Notes: generated from the letters alone by a model not told the origin. A DNA stretch of 14,662 bases from Deinococcaceae bacterium (GCA_040256005.1 JBDZWC010000075.1:1-14662), one strand, 5' to 3'. Positions 3,677 to 11,205 are shown, counted from the stretch's first letter. A program made the numbers and translations.

Positions 3677-4243
3677 TCACTCCTCGAACCACCCCACCCG
3701 CGAGATCGCCGCCTGGACCGCGTCGGGGTCGAACCCGCGCCTGCCCAGGAACGCCCGCGCCTTCGCCTCCGCGCGCCTGAGCCACAGCGACCGTTCGTAG
3801 TCGTCGACGCCATCCGGGGGATCGGCCGGCTGGTAGCGCCAAGCGTTCTTGCGCAGGAGGTCAGCGGCGGCCGACGCCTGTTGCTGCGTGCTCAGCGCAC
3901 CGACGTGCGGAGCCAGGACCTCCTCGTCGATCCCGCGCCTGAGCAGGTCGCGTCGCAGCGCGAAGCGGCCGTGGCTGGAACTGCGGCCGGCCACGAAGCG
4001 CTCGGCGTAGGCGTCGTCGTCGGCCAGGCCCAGCTCCTCGAGGCGCGTCATCAGCTCATCAGCCGTAGAGGCGGCCACGCCGCGCCGCGTCAGCTTCTGC
4101 CTGAGCTGGTGCACCGTGTAGGCCTGCCGGCTCAGCAGGTCCAGAAGGTATTCCCATGCGCCGTCGCGATCCAACAGCCGGGCGGCTCGCCGCCTGGGGC
4201 CGGGGCCGGAACCCTCTCCCGAGCTCGACCCGGAACTGGTCAC
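3677..4243 (-). CDS. recX: Regulatory protein RecX
   Basis: AWEYLLDLLSRQAYTVHQLRQKL, RLEELGLADDDAYAERFV, HGRFALRRDLLRRGID, KARAFLGRRGF: the three-repeat RecX pattern. GTG start overlaps the upstream TGA (GTGA 4240-4243). Confidence 0.88.
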   Translation of the reverse strand: MTSSGSSSGEGSGPGPRRRAARLLDRDGAWEYLLDLLSRQAYTVHQLRQKLTRRGVAASTADELMTRLEELGLADDDAYAERFVAGRSSSHGRFALRRDLLRRGIDEEVLAPHVGALSTQQQASAAADLLRKNAWRYQPADPPDGVDDYERSLWLRRAEAKARAFLGRRGFDPDAVQAAISRVGWFEE

Positions 4244-5424
4244 TTGAGCACCTTGACCGGGTCGAGGCGCGCGGCGCGCCTAGCCGGGAACACGCCGGCG
4301 ATGACGCTGGTGATCAGGGAGACGCCACAGACCCACAGGACGTCGAACGGCTGCACCTCTACCGGCAACTGGGTGATGAAGTACAGGTCTCCCGGCAGCG
4401 GGAAGGGCTGGACGCGGAAGTACGTTGCGACCGCCAGCCCCAGCAGGGCTCCCAGTACGGTGCCGGCCGCACCCAGCATGAAGCCCTCCAGCACGAACAC
4501 CGAGACGACCTGCCGCTCCGAAGCTCCGAGCGCCCGGAGGATGCCGATCTCCTCGGTCTTCTCGGCCACGGTGAGCACCAGCACGTTGGCGATGCCGAAG
4601 GCTGCGACGACGACGATCAGGAACACCACGACGCCTATGACCGCCTTCTGGAGGCGGAGCTGACTGATGAGACTGGAGAACAGGCTCTCCCAGGTGACGG
4701 GCCGAAGCGAGAAACGCTCTGCCAGGTCGAGGCCCACTGCCTGCGCCCGCGTGGGCTCCGCGACCCGGACGTGGTAGCCGGAGATGCGCCCGGGAGCGTT
4801 CATGTACTCCTGCAGTGCGCCGATCGAGAGGTAGGACGTCACCGCGTCGATCAGCTCGTTGCCGACCCGGAACGTGCCGGCGACGGTGAAGGTGGCGGTG
4901 GCGCCCGAGATGTCGCGCACCATCACCTCGTCACCCACCCTCACGCCCAGCTGCTGTGCGAGGGAGCTGCCCAGCACGATCCCGCCGGCGGTGGCGAGCG
5001 CGTCGGCTTGCTGCTCCAGGACCGGCAGGTCGAGCACGGCCGACTCGCGCACGGTGTCGATGCCGATCATCTGCGTGTAGCCCTGCCTGGCGCTGATGCC
5101 CAGGGAGGCGCTGGCGCGCCTGGCTATGAGCGCCTGGGTGGTGAGGAACGGTGCGGCGGCGGTGACGCCCGGCGACCCTGCCACGGCTGCCAGGAGGTCA
5201 GGCTCGTCGGTGAGGGTGTCGCCGGGCAGGTAGCTCTGCAGGGTGACCATCGGCGTGGCCCGCAAGGTGCTCGTGACCAACTCGTCGATGAAGCCGTTGG
5301 TGAGGGACAGAGCGATTATCAGGACGGCGACCCCAACGGCCACGCCGGCCACCGTGAGCCCCGATTGAAGTAGGCGGCGGCGAACGTGCTTGAGCGCGAG
5401 GTACGGGACCAGCGGCCGGCTCAC
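4240..5424 (-). CDS. ABC transporter permease, LolC/LolE (MacB/FtsX-type) family
   Basis: N-terminal TM (LTVAGVAVGVAVLIIALSLTNGF), a periplasmic domain, then VAAFGIANVLVLTVAEKTEEIGILRALGAS, YFITQLPV and PARRAARLDPVKVL. Confidence 0.9.
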   Translation of the reverse strand: MSRPLVPYLALKHVRRRLLQSGLTVAGVAVGVAVLIIALSLTNGFIDELVTSTLRATPMVTLQSYLPGDTLTDEPDLLAAVAGSPGVTAAAPFLTTQALIARRASASLGISARQGYTQMIGIDTVRESAVLDLPVLEQQADALATAGGIVLGSSLAQQLGVRVGDEVMVRDISGATATFTVAGTFRVGNELIDAVTSYLSIGALQEYMNAPGRISGYHVRVAEPTRAQAVGLDLAERFSLRPVTWESLFSSLISQLRLQKAVIGVVVFLIVVVAAFGIANVLVLTVAEKTEEIGILRALGASERQVVSVFVLEGFMLGAAGTVLGALLGLAVATYFRVQPFPLPGDLYFITQLPVEVQPFDVLWVCGVSLITSVIAGVFPARRAARLDPVKVLK

Positions 5425-5526: not shown

Positions 5527-6189
5527 TCAGTCGACGGTGGAAGCGGGGGCCCTGCGCATGGCCAGCAGTTGCGGCGTGGCCTCGAAATCGCTGGCGAGGA
5601 CGTCGGTTAGCTCCGGACCGTTGCGCCCGTAGCGCACGACCTCGACCTCGATCCGGCGCACGCCCCAGCTGATAGCGGTGGAGTACTCGGGGAACCAGAC
5701 GTCCATCTGCTGGGACTTGCGGGAGTGCATCGTGTCTTCGACGATGAACAGACCCTGCGAGTCGAGCAGGTGCTGGAAGGCTCCCGCTCCCCGTCCCGTG
5801 TAGTAGCTGCCCAGGTCCTTCAGCCTTATCAGCGAGCCGTAGGGGATGGCGTCGCCGAGCAGGTCGCGGCTCACGGCCACGATGCCGAAGCGGGTCCTGG
5901 CGCCGGTGGCGGTGACGAACGGTGTGGAGTCGGTCTGGTTGGAGAGCGAGTTGTAACCGGTGGCGCGTAGCACGAAGGTGGGGTTGGAGACCGGCCCCAC
6001 GTTCACCGAGAACCGGGAGTCAGGCTCCACCGGCGTATCGCGGATGACGGCGACGGGGGAGATGCTCAGTTCCACTGCACCGGAGTCGCTCACGTCGACC
6101 GTTGGTTCTCGAGGCGCGCTGAAGGCTGTGATGAGGGCGGTGATCACCAGGCCAAGCGCCAGGAGCTTACCGCTGATGTGCAAGGCCAC
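5527..6189 (-). CDS. Exported/membrane-anchored 3D-domain (three-Asp, MltA-like) protein, putative peptidoglycan-remodelling enzyme
   Basis: ATGYNS...QTDSTPFVTATG, GIVAVSRD, IPYGS, FIVEDTM, QMDVWF, WGVRRIEV: the 3D-domain pattern, after an N-terminal hydrophobic helix. Start set at GTG 6189, which has GGAGG 5 nt upstream; the ORF extends to 6225. Confidence 0.88.
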   Translation of the reverse strand: MALHISGKLLALGLVITALITAFSAPREPTVDVSDSGAVELSISPVAVIRDTPVEPDSRFSVNVGPVSNPTFVLRATGYNSLSNQTDSTPFVTATGARTRFGIVAVSRDLLGDAIPYGSLIRLKDLGSYYTGRGAGAFQHLLDSQGLFIVEDTMHSRKSQQMDVWFPEYSTAISWGVRRIEVEVVRYGRNGPELTDVLASDFEATPQLLAMRRAPASTVD

Positions 6190-6194
6190 AGAGC

Positions 6195-6218
6195 CCTCCC
6201 AACCAGCGGATGCTAACA
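6195..6218 (-). promoter_or_regulatory. Extended -10 promoter (TGtTAGCAT) and SD (GGGAGG) for the 3D-domain gene
   Basis: Minus strand GGTGTTAGCATCCGCTGGTTGGGAGGGCTCTGTG; TAGCAT at 6210-6215, SD at about 6195-6200. Confidence 0.5.
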
Positions 6219-6417
6219 CCTTCACATGAGAGCAGCCGTGTTCGGAGGTAAGCTACTCGTTTCCCTCGGTCTCATCCTCGGTGGTGCCGGCCGGCGCGAC
6301 TGACACGCCGGCGCGGGAAGCTTCGTGACGCCCGTGGCGGCGTCTCCTACCGCGTCGCGGGTTAGGCTGCGCCCGAGTCTGCCGGCGAACGAGTCGGCGA
6401 GGAGAACCAAGAAGAGA

Positions 6418-8982
6418 GTGCTGCCGCTCCCTGGCCTCATGGCCATGCCCACCGTCCTGATGAACGCGGGCCTTAGTCTGGTGCGCGAGGGCGGAACCGT
6501 CGCCGTGGGACCCGACAGGTTGGGGGCGTTCGTCCCCATGTTCGACGAAGAGGCCGGTGCCGAGAAGACCATCCGGTCCCTCCTCGGTCAGACAGAGCCT
6601 CTCGACGAGCTCGTCATCAGCATCAACGGCGGCAGCGACGGCACCCCCGAGGTCGTCGAGCGCACCCTTGCCGCGCTGGGCTACCAGGCCCGCGCCCACG
6701 GCTCCAGCCCCGACGGTGACCTCACCCACTGGCACAGGGCCGGTGACGTCACCTCAGTGGTCGTCGTCAGGTACCTCGCGCCAACCTCCAAGGCCAGGAG
6801 CCTGAACCTGGCGGTGGAGAGCGGCGCGTTGACCGCCGAGCGTGTCCTCGTGGTCGACGGCGACACCGTGCTGTCTGCCGGCTTCGCCGCCGCCATGAGG
6901 CGGTCGTTCTACCGCCTCTCGTATCGGCGCCTCGCGGGCGGGGCTCACGGCTACGTCCTCGAGGACGCGGCACTGCTGTCAGGTGCCGTCAGGTCGCTGC
7001 CCGGCTCCTCGGTCCAGTCCCGTGTGATCTCGGCCGCGCGCGACGCCGAGTACTCGTTCTCTACCGTCGTGCGCAGCGGCCAGTGCGCGCGGCTGGGTCG
7101 CAGCGGAGTGTTCGGGCGCTCGCGCTTGTACACGGTCGTAGGTTGCGGGTTCGTCGCCAGGCGGGACGTCCTGCCCATGCCGGACGACACGCTCACCGAG
7201 GACCACGACCTGACGCTCGCCGCTCAGGACGTCGGCGAGCAAGACGAGGTCACGTCCGCTGCCGAGCTCGACGAGGGCGGCTACGGGCTACTCGTGGGTG
7301 GCCGCGTCAGGCCTGTCTCGGCCCTGCTCGGGCCCGGCACTGCGGTGATCGTGAGGCGAGGCAGCACGGCGCGCTTCGTGAGCGGCGCGGTCATGCATAC
7401 CGAGGACCCCCCACGCCTGGGCGGCCTGCTGAGGCAGGTGGAGCGGTGGAACGGCGGCGCCATCGAGAACGCGCTGAAACGGATCGGGCCCACGGTGGGA
7501 GGCCGGCTGCGCTCCAACGTGGCGTTCACGGTCGCCTCCGCCCAGGTGGAGAACGCGATCGGCCTGTTCCTCGCGCTGCTGCTGCCCGCCATGCTGGGAC
7601 TGCGGCACGCCTTGCCCCAAGCGCAGGTACCTGCGGCGATGCTGATCGGCTGGATAGGCATAGACCTCTTGGCCAGCCTGCTCATCGTCGTCGCCGGCGC
7701 CAGGCGGTTGGGCGACACGTGGGGTAGGGCGGCCCTGGTCGCGTTCCGCGGCGTGGTTCCACTGCTGGCCCTGCGGTCGCTGGGCGCGCTCGCTTACGTG
7801 ACAGCCGCTACCCGGGTGGTGCCGGCGTACCTCGGCGCCGGGCTGAAGAGACGGTCGGGCGAGATGCTCGGCTACGTGCAGCGAACCTGGTCGCGGCCAC
7901 GGGCGCATGTGGCGCCCCAGGCCCATCTGCGCACGGCCGGCGTCGCCGCCAGCGTCCTGCTGTTCAGCCTGAGCCTGTTCTTCGCGGTGGCGCACGTCGC
8001 GCGCGCCTACGCGAGCACTCACGACACCTGGCGCTACGTCTACGGCTCTCCGCGGTTGGACCAGTCGGACTTCGAGCTCTTGCCGGTCTACGACGACCGG
8101 AGCATGCCGACGCTGTTGGCGGATCCCGTCGAGTACGTCGCGCCAGCGACCGAGTGGGTCTCCCCGTACTGCCCGCCACCGGCGGTGGCCTCATGGTCGC
8201 CGTCCCTGTCGGACACTACAGACCACGCGCTCGCCTCCGCGAAGACGTACGAACCGCTGAGCCCGTGGGGCATCCTGATGCTGGCCCGGCTGACGCCCTT
8301 GCTGGCGCACCTCGAAGAGGCCGCGCTGGCGTACGGGCTGAACGCGAACTTCCTGCTGCAGGTCGTGCTCAACGAGTCGTACCTGGATCCGCTGGCTCGA
8401 GGCCCTACCAACGACATCGGGCTCGCCCAGTTGACGTCCGATGCGCTAACCCTCATAGCCGCCGTGTCGGCAGAGGAGGGCAACTCCCTGCGCAACGAGT
8501 CGTTGTTCGCCCGCACGGTGAGCGCGTTCGACCCGGCGTTCTCGCTCTGCGCCGGCGCGGCGAAGCTCGCCTGGGCCGTGTCGCAGCCGGGCGGAGATGA
8601 CCCAGAGGTCGCCTACGCGCGGTACATCAACCCGTTCGACGGCGTACGGGACGGGGCGGTGGCACCTACGCACGCCGAGCCGGTCGCCGCCATGACGCAG
8701 CTGGGCGCGCTCGTGCAGCTACTCGGGGCAGTCGTCGAGACGTACCGAGAGGACCCTGCCCTGGTCAGCCCTCAGGAACGCGAGCTGCTGGACGTCGCGG
8801 CGGCGGTAGCCGATCGGCGTCTTAGCGTTCCCGAAGCCTATAGACGGGTCTCGAACCTGGTGGCCGCGTTCGACATCGACGACCGACAGTTCTACCGGAC
8901 CGTGCTCGAGGACCTCTACGGTCCGAACGAGCCGGGTCCGGACGTCACTGGTCAGCTCGCAAGCGCGCCACGGTCCCGCTGA
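6418..8982 (+). CDS. Processive GT2 glycosyltransferase (polysaccharide synthase-like) fused to a C-terminal lytic transglycosylase (SLT/GH23-like) domain
   Basis: GT2 motifs: VPMFDEE, INGGSDGT, SKARSLN, VVDGDT (DxD, 6856), TLTEDHDLT (7195), RQVERW (QxxRW, 7435), followed by membrane helices. SLT-like motifs: AALAYGLNANFLLQVVLNESYLDPLARG (Glu at 8374), DIGLAQL (8419), FDPAFSLCAGAAKL, AYARY. Start is uncertain: the ORF opens at 6325, and GTG 6418 or ATG 6439 are more likely. Confidence 0.85.
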   Translation: MLPLPGLMAMPTVLMNAGLSLVREGGTVAVGPDRLGAFVPMFDEEAGAEKTIRSLLGQTEPLDELVISINGGSDGTPEVVERTLAALGYQARAHGSSPDGDLTHWHRAGDVTSVVVVRYLAPTSKARSLNLAVESGALTAERVLVVDGDTVLSAGFAAAMRRSFYRLSYRRLAGGAHGYVLEDAALLSGAVRSLPGSSVQSRVISAARDAEYSFSTVVRSGQCARLGRSGVFGRSRLYTVVGCGFVARRDVLPMPDDTLTEDHDLTLAAQDVGEQDEVTSAAELDEGGYGLLVGGRVRPVSALLGPGTAVIVRRGSTARFVSGAVMHTEDPPRLGGLLRQVERWNGGAIENALKRIGPTVGGRLRSNVAFTVASAQVENAIGLFLALLLPAMLGLRHALPQAQVPAAMLIGWIGIDLLASLLIVVAGARRLGDTWGRAALVAFRGVVPLLALRSLGALAYVTAATRVVPAYLGAGLKRRSGEMLGYVQRTWSRPRAHVAPQAHLRTAGVAASVLLFSLSLFFAVAHVARAYASTHDTWRYVYGSPRLDQSDFELLPVYDDRSMPTLLADPVEYVAPATEWVSPYCPPPAVASWSPSLSDTTDHALASAKTYEPLSPWGILMLARLTPLLAHLEEAALAYGLNANFLLQVVLNESYLDPLARGPTNDIGLAQLTSDALTLIAAVSAEEGNSLRNESLFARTVSAFDPAFSLCAGAAKLAWAVSQPGGDDPEVAYARYINPFDGVRDGAVAPTHAEPVAAMTQLGALVQLLGAVVETYREDPALVSPQERELLDVAAAVADRRLSVPEAYRRVSNLVAAFDIDDRQFYRTVLEDLYGPNEPGPDVTGQLASAPRSR

Positions 8983-10117
8983 TCGAGACGACGAGGACCT
9001 CCCCGCTCGGACCCAGGGCGATCTGAGTGATGGGTAGGTCAGTGTCCAGCAGCTCGGTCGCCTGCCCCGATGCCAGGTCGAGGGCCCAGATCCGACCGAC
9101 CACGAAGTCACCGAACAGGTAGGTGCCGGCCGCGGAGGAGCCCGCGAGGACCACTCCGCCCACCACCGCCTGACCGCCGGTCTGGTCCAGCGCCAGGTGA
9201 CCGTACGCGTACACCGGGGGCACGAAGGGCAAGCTTTCGCAGTCGTCGTTCACGAGCCCGGGAGCGTCGGGCAGATGCTGGCACTCGAAGCCCTCGCGGC
9301 GAGGCCACCCGTGGTCGCCGCCCCTCGCTACGACGTTGACCTCTTCCCAGCGGTCGTTGCCAACGTCGACGAGCACCACCTCGCCGGTCACTGGGTGGAA
9401 CGTGAACTTCCAGGGGTTCCGGAAGCCGTACGCGTAGATCTCGGGCCTGACACCATCGACGCCGACGAACGGGTTGTCCGCCGGGATCGCGTAGGCTTCG
9501 CCCTCGGCGCTCACGCTCAGGTCGAGGCGCAACAGCTTGCCCCTCACCGTCGAGAGGTCCTGGGACGAGAACGGGAGTCGATGCAGGTAGACGTTGGAGC
9601 TCTCGCCGTTCCCGACGCTCACCCACAGCATCCCGTCGGGCCCGAACTCCACGTGGCCGCCGTAGTGGAAGGGCTCTGGCATGGGCACTCGCAGCAACAC
9701 GTCCTCGCGGGCCGCCGCGGCCGTCACGGTCTGGTCGTCGAACGGGAACGCCGACACGATGAGGTCGCCGGTGTCGCGCTCCGCGAACGCCCCCACCAAC
9801 CACCTGGGCCTGCCCGCCGCCGCTGCAGCGTCCGCCGGCTCGAGCGCCACGCCGTAGAAGCCCTGTTCGCCCTGCAACGCCGTGACCCGCGCGCTCAGGT
9901 CGAGGACCAGTCTAGCCCTCACGCCCCCGTCGCGAAGCAGGTACACCTGGCCGTTCAGCGACGACAGGAGCATCGAGCCGTCGTCCAGGGGCAGCAGCGC
10001 GACCGGCTTGTCGAGGCCGTCGTAGAGCGTCTCCAGGCGGTAGGTAGTCTGGGCGAGGGCGCTGGGGGCCAGCAGGGCGAGGGGTAGGAGGAGGCGCGTG
10101 AGTGCGTTGGTGAGCAT
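8945..10117 (-). CDS. Secreted PQQ-dependent sugar dehydrogenase (glucose/sorbosone dehydrogenase, six-blade beta-propeller family)
   Basis: Signal peptide ending in ALA-Q; HYGGHVEFGPDGMLWVSVG, RGKLLRLD, YAIPADNPF, EIYAYGFRNPWKFTF, DVG...WEEVN, GGDHGWP. Start is ATG 10117 or TTG 10123. Confidence 0.88.
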   Translation of the reverse strand: MLTNALTRLLLPLALLAPSALAQTTYRLETLYDGLDKPVALLPLDDGSMLLSSLNGQVYLLRDGGVRARLVLDLSARVTALQGEQGFYGVALEPADAAAAAGRPRWLVGAFAERDTGDLIVSAFPFDDQTVTAAAAREDVLLRVPMPEPFHYGGHVEFGPDGMLWVSVGNGESSNVYLHRLPFSSQDLSTVRGKLLRLDLSVSAEGEAYAIPADNPFVGVDGVRPEIYAYGFRNPWKFTFHPVTGEVVLVDVGNDRWEEVNVVARGGDHGWPRREGFECQHLPDAPGLVNDDCESLPFVPPVYAYGHLALDQTGGQAVVGGVVLAGSSAAGTYLFGDFVVGRIWALDLASGQATELLDTDLPITQIALGPSGEVLVVSISGTVARLRADQ

Positions 10118-10185
10118 GCTCAATGCGCGGCCAGCATATGCCTAGCAGCCTGGTGGCGAACGCGACTGCTGTTGGAGCGAGACCG

Positions 10186-11205
10186 CTACTGGGAGGCCAA
10201 CTCGGCCCGCAGCAAGCCCTCGCGGAACGCGTCGGCCACGACGGGATCGGCCACCATCCTCCAGTCCGCCTCCTTGTGCTCGTCGAACCAGACGATGGCC
10301 TGTAGCCTCGCGAAGGACGTGCTGTTCAACATGGCCTCGACCCAGGCGGCCTTGTCGCCCCCCTCGGGCGAGCTGGAGAGCTCCGCGAACCATACGGGTT
10401 GGTCGCCGAGTCTGGTGATGCGGTCGTAGCCCGAGGCGAACACGCTCTCGAACGGGCGCCAGGCGGTCCACGGCCGCGTCGTGCCCCAGTTGTAGCCGTC
10501 CAGAGCGAGCACGTCGACGACGTCGTCGCCCGGGTAGTAGAGCTCCATGCGGTTGGACTCCGTGCTGGGCGAGTCCGTGACGTTCGGGCTGAACACCCAC
10601 ATGACGTTGTCGGCGCCTTCGAAGTCGAAGATCGCCACGATCCTCCGCCAGGCCCGGCGGAACGTAGCGGGGTCGCCGTTCCATGGCACCCAGTCTCCGT
10701 TCATCTCGGGGAACGGCCTGACGTAGACCGGCACGCCCGTGCCCTTGAGGTCAACGGCCCAGCGCCTGATGTAGTCGTCCCAGTAGCCGTCGGCGATGTC
10801 ACGGACCGGCACCGTATGGGGCTGCCAGCTGATCATGGCTCGCCGTCCCGCGCTCGCGACGGCCGTGATCATCTCGGGATACGCCTCGTTGCGCCAGTTG
10901 GTGAACCAATGGACGATGTCGAGCCTCTGTCCCAGCGAAGCCTCCAGGTCGAGGACGGGCTCCAACCCCTGCCATACGCCCCCGTAGGTGAACGCGCCCA
11001 GCTTCACGCGCTGGGCTAGAGGCAGGCCAGCGTCGTCGATGACGGGAACGGTGGAGGCGTCGCCCGGGGTGAGGGACCCCGGCTCGGCACAGGCGGTGCC
11101 CAGAAACGACAGGCACATCATCGCTAGTAAAGCAACGACGGGCGATCGCCGGAAACGCTTGGCAGGGAGATGGAAAGTTAACGAACTCAACCGGCGATCG
11201 CCCAT
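10186..11205 (-). CDS. Exported glycoside hydrolase family 26 (beta-mannanase/beta-glucanase-like), possible lipoprotein
   Basis: MISWQP, IADGYWDDYIRRWA, RPFPEMNGDWVPW (acid/base Glu), WVFSPN, YYPGDDVVDVLALDGYN, WFAEL (nucleophile Glu), IVWFD. N-terminus has a basic stretch, a hydrophobic stretch and LGTAC. Start is 11205 or 11190. Confidence 0.9.
   Translation of the reverse strand: MGDRRLSSLTFHLPAKRFRRSPVVALLAMMCLSFLGTACAEPGSLTPGDASTVPVIDDAGLPLAQRVKLGAFTYGGVWQGLEPVLDLEASLGQRLDIVHWFTNWRNEAYPEMITAVASAGRRAMISWQPHTVPVRDIADGYWDDYIRRWAVDLKGTGVPVYVRPFPEMNGDWVPWNGDPATFRRAWRRIVAIFDFEGADNVMWVFSPNVTDSPSTESNRMELYYPGDDVVDVLALDGYNWGTTRPWTAWRPFESVFASGYDRITRLGDQPVWFAELSSSPEGGDKAAWVEAMLNSTSFARLQAIVWFDEHKEADWRMVADPVVADAFREGLLRAELASQ
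11140..11203. repeat. 13-bp perfect inverted repeat at the start of the GH26 gene
   Basis: GGGCGATCGCCGG (11140-11152) and CCGGCGATCGCCC (11191-11203), 38 nt apart. Each arm contains the palindrome GGCGATCGCC. Confidence 0.7.

Follow-up and report, generated by a model that had tools for sequence, protein, structure and literature searches.

In synthase-dependent polysaccharide systems, the synthesis, export and trimming of the polymer and its passage through the cell wall are normally spread over several proteins. A departure from this division is described for the pseudomonad protein NdvB, in which a periplasmic GH17 domain, a transmembrane (TM) region and a cytoplasmic domain of glycosyltransferase family 2 (GT2) share one chain, and the GH17 domain is proposed to process the product of the synthase (PMC10237404). 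In Streptomyces, the CslA glycan is reported to reach the surface only if peptidoglycan is remodelled locally by CslZ and LpmP (PMC9040799). The membrane layout of such synthases is described for hyaluronan synthase (HAS), where interface helix 2 (IFH2) contains the QxxRW motif and IFH3 is joined to transmembrane helix 5 (TMH5) by a cytosolic gating loop in which a Trp and an Arg are key residues (PMC11750622). Here we describe a gene at positions 6325-8982 (+) of a 14,662-nucleotide stretch from Deinococcaceae bacterium (GCA_040256005.1 JBDZWC010000075.1:1-14662; the whole stretch is called the window below), which encodes a PgaC-like GT2 domain and a lytic-transglycosylase-like SLT/GH23 domain in a single frame. 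A preliminary description of this DNA, made from the sequence alone, had proposed such a fusion; we examined its reading frame, distribution, folds, likely topology and neighbours, and compared it with the systems above.

Reading frame and conservation of the fusion

The frame at 6325-8982 was found to be open without interruption over 885 codons from a GTG start, in agreement with the preliminary description. A word-indexed search returned 157 relatives; the 120 listed are all 798-975 aa long, and their precomputed domain assignments gave SLT in 107, SLT together with GT2 in 75, GT2 alone in nine and neither in four. Wherever the source name of these 120 gave an organism it was Trueperaceae, the remaining names being function-only, and the database names of the proteins are limited to "transglycosylase SLT domain-containing protein" or a COG1215-type transferase. 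An exhaustive search of representative sequences yielded about 22 clusters of full-length proteins at 50% identity; a weaker group of fused proteins was not found in it. The search across Deinococcota that had been suggested as a check was run with one genome per species, covering 127 genomes of the window's family (Trueperaceae) and 236 of the other five families of the phylum; the fusion gene was present in 76 of the former and in none of the latter. As far as these searches reach, the fusion is confined to Trueperaceae.

It had been allowed that homologues might always be two genes and the fusion an assembly artefact; such a fusion would be two genes merged by an error of assembly or gene calling. 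The window does come from a 250-contig assembly, and in a few genomes (G290 and G245) the matches fall in different frames. However, about 71 of the 77 genomes with a match carry it in a single frame: the match is in one piece in 38 and in two pieces of the same open frame, with a divergent linker between them, in 32, while G248 has a long-linker form of 1271 aa (P0267). In other matching genomes the gene is cut by contig ends or frameshifted. The seemingly split genes of G290 (a single-contig genome; L026:5669-8126) and G245 (L032:6001-8606) change frame inside the glycosyltransferase/TM part, in three or two frames, and not between the domains; they are cases of indel error or pseudogenes rather than of a two-gene form that occurs in nature. 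In addition, contigs from an independent study span 6000-7992 and 7963-8977 with zero insertions or deletions. For practical purposes, an artefactual fusion is refuted.

The numbering of the preliminary description, which is kept here, holds for the frame; the length of 885 aa probably does not. Homologue starts align in most cases to V32 (GTG, 6418) or to M39/M41, and residues 1-36 have a predicted local distance difference test score (pLDDT) below 50 in the AlphaFold2 (AF2) model; because of these two observations the true start is probably GTG 6418 (aa 32) or ATG 6439 (aa 39), 31-38 residues downstream, which would give a protein of 847-854 aa. Homologues are about 847 aa long and cover 96% of the query. 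The gene is alone on its strand, and a promoter scan of 6000-9300 gave no sigma-70-like site. In two metatranscriptome libraries, which come from different studies, the gene is represented by just two short contigs each (6253-6407 and about 8271-8442), with identical coordinates and no differences; such libraries can contain DNA, and these contigs are no proof of expression.

The two domains and the membrane part between them

The features of the gene, from the start of the frame to its end, are as follows.

6325..8982, + strand, whole open reading frame (885 codons)
6496..7512, + strand, GT2 (GT-A) domain, predicted cytoplasmic, aa ~58-396; from Pfam, invariant columns, hhalign against PgaC and VIA fold comparison
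6856-6864, 7195-7203 and 7435-7449, + strand, GT2 motifs DGD (aa 178-180), TED (aa 291-293) and QVERW (aa 371-375)
7513..7707, + strand, predicted TM hairpin of helices 397-429 and 435-461 with a 5-residue outer loop; from AF2, hydrophobicity and Lys plus Arg (K+R) counts
7720..7854, + strand, long helix 466-510, amphipathic in its second half and K/R-rich at both ends; R484, N487 and R497 conserved
7855..7914, + strand, loop 511-530 with TWSRPR (7885-7902); W522 and R524 invariant; pLDDT ~58
7915..8019, + strand, predicted third TM helix 531-565; AF2 helix, maximal 19-residue hydropathy 1.92, change in K+R, VIA match to TMH5 of XlHAS1
8023..8088, + strand, juxtamembrane segment 567-588; W569, L586 and P587 conserved; predicted to pack on the SLT domain
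8089..8157, + strand, variable linker, partly disordered; pLDDT <50 at 592-607
8158..8739, + strand, SLT/GH23-like domain, aa 612-805; from Pfam SLT, MltC profile match, fold matches and invariant columns
8170-8172 and 8548-8550, + strand, invariant C616 and C742 within the SLT domain
8374-8376, + strand, catalytic-type E684 in the SLT domain, alongside GLAQ (699-702) and AYA (763-765)
8740..8934, + strand, C-terminal helical extension, aa 806-870, of no known family; helices with pLDDT >90; Y839, D853, Y857, L864 and Y865 conserved

The motif positions given earlier were exact throughout, including TWSRPR (521-526), LNES (682-685, with E684), FDP (735-737) and AYARY (763-767); an additional TED lies at 359-361. 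Across 47 aligned homologues of 39-85% identity, D178-G-D180, T291-E-D293, Q371, R374, W375, W522 and R524 are invariant (47/47). Pfam recognised three GT2 families in fragments (69-113, 141-191 and 344-431). The hhalign comparison with E. coli PgaC (NP_415541.1; Prob 98.9, E 1.1e-17, 252 columns) placed DGD, TED-x-D and QxxRW in register, and BcsA was matched at Prob 79.7 and E 1.5e-5. By this alignment, DGD178, TED291 and QVERW371 are the true catalytic motifs and TED359 is simply the usual "E-P" stretch that precedes QxxRW. Residues ~300-348 form a family-specific insertion of about 50 residues relative to PgaC, between TED and QxxRW. NCBIfam PgaC_IcaA (TIGR03937) scored 17.1 bits against a cut-off of 422.3, over an N-terminal stretch only, and the protein is a PgaC homologue outside that equivalog. 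A PDB search with the single sequence gave no match at E up to 1, and the whole-protein profile gave only weak PDB matches, to the GT2 N-terminus and to MltC (E 0.018).

The domain has the GT-A organisation with D, DxD, (T)ED and QxxRW by which processive membrane GT2 enzymes are recognised. The full-length AF2 model (pLDDT 86.4, predicted template modelling score (pTM) 0.74) was matched by Foldseek best to Chlorella virus HAS (E 7.9e-10), followed by chitin synthases and BcsA. By VIA, the top match was PcManGT (Z 25.7, 326 of 346 residues aligned, model 34-503), with CvHAS (Z 22.9, model 33-564), E. coli BcsA (Z 22.6) and XlHAS1 (Z 20.9, model 31-561 on chain 48-532) below it. PcManGT is characterised, in remarks of papers citing it, as a non-processive "minimal" GT2. 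The HAS/BcsA matches span model residues 31-565; the model has only three TM helices, and its top match is the minimal enzyme. Fold comparison alone does not tell processive from minimal non-processive enzymes. We favour the processive type for the GT2 half, based on the invariant QxxRW and W-x-R and on the sequence homology to PgaC.

The order of the membrane part given in the preliminary description (membrane helices, then TWSRPR, then one further helix) stands, but the AF2 model has, after the QxxRW helix (365-387), four long helices (397-429, 435-461, 466-510 and 531-565), of which the third is amphipathic in its second half. The hydrophobic moment of 484-508 is 0.49, against 0.52 for the QxxRW interface helix and 0.15-0.21 for the three TM helices. 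Helix 466-510 is a probable cytoplasmic interface helix, equivalent to the third interface helix of HAS, and loop 511-530 a probable cytoplasmic gating loop: a Trp/Arg pair that follows the third interface helix and precedes the next TM helix is found here as the invariant W522 and R524, at the position corresponding to HAS, and functional equivalence to the HAS loop is suggested by this correspondence. Helix 531-565 falls on TMH5 of XlHAS1 in the VIA ranges. Mean K+R over the 47 sequences is 2.8 in 388-399, 0.13 in 430-434, 5.2 in 458-472 and 8.4 in 498-536; downstream of the last helix (562-600), K+R is 4.1 and the Asp plus Glu count is 5.1. The simplest reading of these data is a layout of in, TM, out, TM, in, interface helix, gating loop, TM, out. 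The SLT domain would then lie outside the membrane, since HAS returns via TMH6 whereas the Trueperaceae family does not; charge, amphipathicity and HAS homology all point outward, as had been proposed, rather than to the cytoplasm. Of the three invariant Cys in the whole protein, two (C616 and C742) are within the C-terminal domain, which fits an oxidising compartment.

A linker between membrane part and SLT domain had been called Pro/Ser-rich. The linker is present, but the stretch concerned (566-611) is of variable length across the 47 homologues (31-130 aa), has 16% A and 10% P, and is predicted to be packed on the SLT domain in its first part (567-588). When residues 39-600 and 610-870 were predicted as two chains, ipSAE was 0.65, 0.65 and 0.67, with 0.00 for the best control, at least 79% of contacts common between runs and a partner pLDDT of 88; the mark used is passed by 116 of 157 solved complexes and 2 of 215 mismatched pairs, counts that are rough here as custom alignments were used. 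All contacts of chain 39-600 listed with an expected error below 8 Å fall in 567-588, and those on the SLT side in 696-714, 731-736, 754, 770-771 and 863-866. As the two chains are parts of one polypeptide, the pass speaks for intramolecular packing and not for a complex. The SLT domain is accordingly predicted by the model to be pinned near the outer membrane face, with the variable stretch forming a loop and not a long tether. A long form of the protein also occurs (P0123/P0267, 1265-1271 aa, L027:6052-9864), in which about 430-480 additional in-frame residues separate the third TM helix from the SLT domain; in P0123 (1265 aa) the linker stretch is about 480 aa.

The assignment of the C-terminal domain was borne out by Pfam SLT (PF01464) at 664-765, with 30.2 bits against a cut-off of 21.3. 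Modelled alone from 30 sequences taken from genome loci, residues 610-870 gave a pLDDT of 94.1 and a pTM of 0.92. A VIA search of about 48,000 representative chains returned GH23 lytic transglycosylases as all of the best matches, which agrees with the lysozyme-like fold expected for the domain; representative matches are given below with their Z score, root mean square deviation (rmsd) and number of aligned residues.

5o2n (LtgA-type), Z 13.8, rmsd 3.3 Å, 151 aligned
MltF 5aa1, Z 13.6, rmsd 2.7 Å, 139 aligned
MltC 4c5f, Z 12.8, rmsd 2.4 Å, 139 aligned
MltE 4hjy, Z 11.9, rmsd 3.2 Å, 139 aligned
Slt70 1qsa, Z 11.2, rmsd 2.7 Å, 141 aligned
GH23 chitinase 3w6b, Z 10.0, rmsd 4.6 Å, 143 aligned
g-type lysozyme 4g9s, Z 9.5, rmsd 3.1 Å, 134 aligned

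Overall, the lytic transglycosylases scored Z 10.4-13.8, above the GH23 chitinase and the g-type lysozyme, and the top Foldseek rows were all MltE, MltC or MltF (best E 1.2e-3). The fold matches cover model residues 20-196 (protein 629-805), leaving 806-870 as an extra conserved helical part. The domain profile matched MltC (E 0.0013), T7 gp16 and MltE at the top of the PDB search; weaker matches, among them spectrin and further proteins with long helices, concern the helical part at the C-terminus. In the profile alignment the family N-E-S sits on T-E-S of MltC, where the Glu is taken as catalytic because entry 4cfo reads Q at this position. The aligned E684, whose conservation had been named as decisive, is invariant in all 47 homologues and in the 30 sequences used for modelling, and N683, S685, G699, Q702 and A763-Y764-A765 are invariant as well. 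Canonical family-1 lytic transglycosylases have GLMQ and AYNxG motifs; here GLAQ is present and the third motif is AYARY, or AYA-R/L-Y across the family. The same genome has one other, canonical SLT gene on contig C174 (99.6 bits). A distant stand-alone relative of the SLT domain, P0212 (731 aa; E ~1e-10 to the family profile), was found fused to a polysaccharide deacetylase domain of carbohydrate esterase family 4 (CE4).

Unfused relatives and neighbouring genes

The representative search also gave a second group of proteins, 476-517 aa long, that match profile positions 7-504 only (E 1e-46 to 1e-67). These unfused relatives, which come from outside the family, have the GT2 domain with its insertion, both TM helices of the hairpin and the third helix, keep the W-x-R loop, and stop a few residues past an invariant W-x-R-P. 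In terms of sequence, the Trueperaceae protein is a synthase of this unfused type extended by one TM helix, a linker and an SLT domain. For the unfused form, the gene neighbourhood was examined at one locus only (L014, in a record titled as a Methyloligellaceae metagenome-assembled genome), where L014:6001-11676 holds the GT2 gene, then a gene for a 530-aa protein of unknown type, then one for an 844-aa protein that combines DUF2334 with a GH57-like stretch and DUF3131. This locus was found to lack an SLT gene. The three-gene set has 39% G+C, against 46-49% for the upstream flotillin/PspA/YqiJ genes, and looks like an island.

Around the fusion gene, the following genes of the window and of related loci were of interest.

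10186-11205, - strand, GH26 lichenase-like protein; Pfam and PDB matches; signal-like N-terminus by eye
8945-10123, - strand, pyrroloquinoline quinone (PQQ)-type sugar dehydrogenase GSDH; Pfam; signal-like N-terminus by eye
5527..6225, - strand, divergently oriented conserved protein of 232 aa; N-terminal TM helix; pattern ATGY...EDTMH...DVWF
L015:4338-5963 (-), L016:4425-5942 (-), L017:8550-10070 (+) and L032:8772-10424 (+), beta-helix genes downstream of the synthase in other genomes

The GH26 and GSDH genes form a two-gene unit (8945..11205, -) convergent to the synthase. The GH26 protein matched the GH26 structures of C. thermocellum Endoglucanase H over the whole domain (E 2e-50) and mannanases at 1e-9 or weaker; the Endoglucanase H entries are presumably those of the lichenase CtLic26A. 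Among 29 loci from other genomes, GH26 was present in 25 (including the rearranged L016, L020, L029 and L030), the dehydrogenase in 23 and the 232-aa gene in 21. Of the 127 family genomes, 72 had both synthase and GH26, 50 had neither, four had the synthase alone (G244, G254, G273 and G343) and one had GH26 alone (G260); the genomes are kin, so this pattern may reflect few events. The GH26/GSDH unit is a candidate partner of the synthase. GH26 is tandem-duplicated in many relatives, e.g., L020, L022-L025, L027 and L031.

For the 232-aa protein, the sole non-random PDB matches were to B. subtilis YuiC, colinear and weak (E 0.3), and an Atlas cluster carries PF06725 (3D domain) in 21% of members, with a score of 0.93. 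These sequence matches offer, as a lead only, that it is possibly a second wall enzyme of the YuiC/3D-domain (MltA-like) type. In four lower-G+C Trueperaceae lineages, the gene immediately downstream of the synthase, in the same orientation, encodes a lipoprotein-like protein of 505-550 aa with beta-helix/Chlam_PMP repeats; a pair of these proteins share 37% identity. The one match to this beta-helix protein in the window's genome is weak and lies on another contig (E 2.6e-7). The 530-aa gene of L014 was considered as a relative of the L015-L017/L032 gene and found to be unrelated (BLASTP E 0.071). Further from the synthase, a MacB/FtsX-type permease gene (4240-5424, -) has no adjacent ATPase gene and is directly followed by recX (3677-4243, -), an order kept in many relatives. 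Partners of the pgaABD type were not found among the window genes.

Possible mechanisms and comparison with known systems

The reading that we prefer, at a probability of about 0.4, is that of a synthase whose outward SLT domain cuts peptidoglycan where the polymer exits, with GH26 as the product hydrolase. The cytoplasmic PgaC-like GT2 domain would polymerise a beta-glycan from a nucleotide sugar at the membrane face; the third TM helix, absent from unfused relatives, would take the chain outside; and the segment after it would pin a family-1 lytic-transglycosylase domain (Glu684) to the outer membrane face. That domain might act locally on the glycan strands of peptidoglycan, cleaving them at the point where new polymer emerges from the membrane, and so let the polymer cross the wall or be laid into it, while the neighbouring secreted GH26 would act as the product-specific hydrolase of the system. 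We prefer this reading because the SLT domain is nearer to murein enzymes in sequence and fold, because a separate candidate product hydrolase exists in GH26, and because Streptomyces CslA provides a precedent. Several points weigh against it. Export by this chain alone is not assured, given three TM helices (fewer than in BcsA or HAS), none of them N-terminal, and PcManGT as the best structural match; a membrane-adjacent SLT domain, as modelled, would be at least as well placed to act on the emerging chain as on the wall; and a single glycan chain has no obvious need of a hole in the peptidoglycan. The third lytic transglycosylase motif is altered (AYA-R/L-Y for AYNxG), and the link to GH26 consists of synteny and co-occurrence among kin, not of independent events. 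Finally, PgaC is the nearest relative and L014 has a deacetylase-like/hydrolase-like neighbour, which together hint at an N-acetylhexosamine (HexNAc) polymer that the GH23 domain might bind.

Such a polymer would suit a different function, in which the SLT/GH23 domain cuts, releases or sizes the synthase's own nascent beta-1,4-HexNAc-type chain and not peptidoglycan, much as the GH17 domain of NdvB is proposed to do and as MltG acts on nascent peptidoglycan. We consider this the main rival, though somewhat unlikely. The domain is predicted to be packed on the segment right after the third TM helix, beside the exit; the GT2 half is nearest to a polymerase of GlcNAc, PgaC; solved SLT clefts bind chito-oligomers, according to the entry titles 4hjy, 7lam and 8rhi; a GH23 chitinase is matched at Z 10.0; the unfused relative at L014 has a DUF2334 deacetylase-like partner; and NdvB is described as a precedent for a periplasmic glycanase fused to GT2 (PMC10237404). 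However, sequence and fold are nearer to peptidoglycan lytic transglycosylases than to the chitinase, the separate co-occurring lichenase-like GH26 would be the expected product hydrolase, and a beta-1,6 polymer such as poly-N-acetylglucosamine could, by the mechanism of these enzymes, be no substrate for a lytic transglycosylase. Put more narrowly, that one polypeptide polymerises, exports and cuts a non-peptidoglycan HexNAc glycan, perhaps leaving 1,6-anhydro ends, is in our estimate unlikely.

Quite unlikely is a role for the GT2 half as a PcManGT-like transferase that glycosylates a lipid-linked acceptor at the inner face, with the SLT domain as an ordinary anchored wall enzyme that happens to share the polypeptide. 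Such a role would be consistent with PcManGT as the best structural match, with the small number of TM helices and with the existence of SLT-less relatives that have just two TM helices and an interface helix. Against it stand the invariant QxxRW and W-x-R loop, the clear homology to the processive PgaC, the HAS/BcsA match over model 31-565 with the third TM helix included, and the strict conservation of the fusion, which argues for coupled function. It is more improbable still that the SLT domain is a non-cutting, glycan-binding module by which the synthase is anchored to the wall or the chain is guided, a role comparable to that of BcsB for cellulose: the third lytic transglycosylase motif is changed, and the juxtamembrane segment contacts the surroundings of GLAQ and FDP (696-714 and 731-736), so that it could fill part of the cleft, but Glu684-Ser685 together with N683, P689, G693, T695, D697, G699 and Q702 are invariant across homologues of 39-85% identity, as is typical of a working active site.

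In this protein a Deinococcota lineage has combined a PgaC-like synthase and a wall-cutting-type domain on one chain, the addition being made through a single TM helix that follows the gating loop. Should the outer domain open peptidoglycan, the protein would be a compact answer to the passage of a polymer through a thick wall, a problem so far addressed in Streptomyces only. If it cuts the product, the substrate range of lytic transglycosylases would be widened; with a HexNAc product it would be the first case of a lytic transglycosylase dedicated to a substrate other than murein, and of an exopolysaccharide synthase that carries its own device for chain length or release. Either way, the family would serve as a simple model, self-contained in its genetics, in which glycan synthesis is coupled to the remodelling of the wall.

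The preliminary description knew of no characterised protein with this architecture. This holds for the GT2-SLT combination, for which no description was found in the open-access PMC/bioRxiv literature, where other wordings may escape such searches, but not for a synthase and a glycanase on a single chain, for which NdvB, with its GH17-TM-GT2 order, is a precedent. AmpG1 was considered as a described GT2-SLT fusion and set aside, as its paper reports an interaction with Slt, not a fusion. Like NdvB, the "Orphan" cyclic beta-1,3-glucan synthase, the Trueperaceae protein would combine a cytoplasmic GT2 and a periplasmic glycan-cleaving domain; NdvB differs in having a GH17 TIM barrel at the N-terminus and a BcsA-like TM region, whereas the Trueperaceae protein has a GH23/SLT lysozyme-like domain at the C-terminus behind a single added helix, and no GH17 hit was obtained in it among Pfam matches at E up to 1. 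The Streptomyces CslA-GlxA-CslZ-LpmP system is similar in that a GT2 synthase relies on local wall remodelling, proposed to allow its glycan through the wall, and has a separate glucanase beside it; as described for that system, remodelling is performed by separate proteins (a lytic polysaccharide monooxygenase and a glucanase), in contrast to a domain within the synthase chain. With MltC, MltE, MltF and Slt70 (GH23) the C-terminal domain shares Pfam SLT, Glu-Ser, GLxQ, the alignment of the catalytic Glu and the fold (Z 11.2-13.8). Those enzymes are stand-alone wall enzymes, soluble or lipid-anchored, whereas the Trueperaceae domain is the C-terminus of a glycosyltransferase, with AYA-R/L-Y, a conserved Cys pair and a 65-residue helical extension.

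The closest characterised relative of the GT2 half is PgaC/IcaA, with the motifs in register. PgaC, whose C-terminal end reads RARWVSPDRG, also has a W-x-x-P-x-R tail after its C-terminal hydrophobic helices, as the unfused relatives end in W-x-R-P; the Trueperaceae protein differs from PgaC in the lack of N-terminal TM helices, the insertion, the extra TM helix and the putatively outward SLT domain. With HAS and BcsA it shares the order of QxxRW interface helix, two TM helices, interface helix, Trp/Arg gating loop and TM helix. HAS is described as having two TM helices on the N-terminal side, another four on the C-terminal side and a cytosolic C-terminus (PMC11750622), whereas the Trueperaceae family has zero N-terminal ones and lacks the last C-terminal one, which would direct its C-terminus outward; relative to the unfused form, the family would illustrate how a topology can be flipped through the gain of one helix. 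Compared with all of these systems, what is new is the GH23 partner, its place at the C-terminus, gained through a single extra helix, and the confinement to one Deinococcota family.

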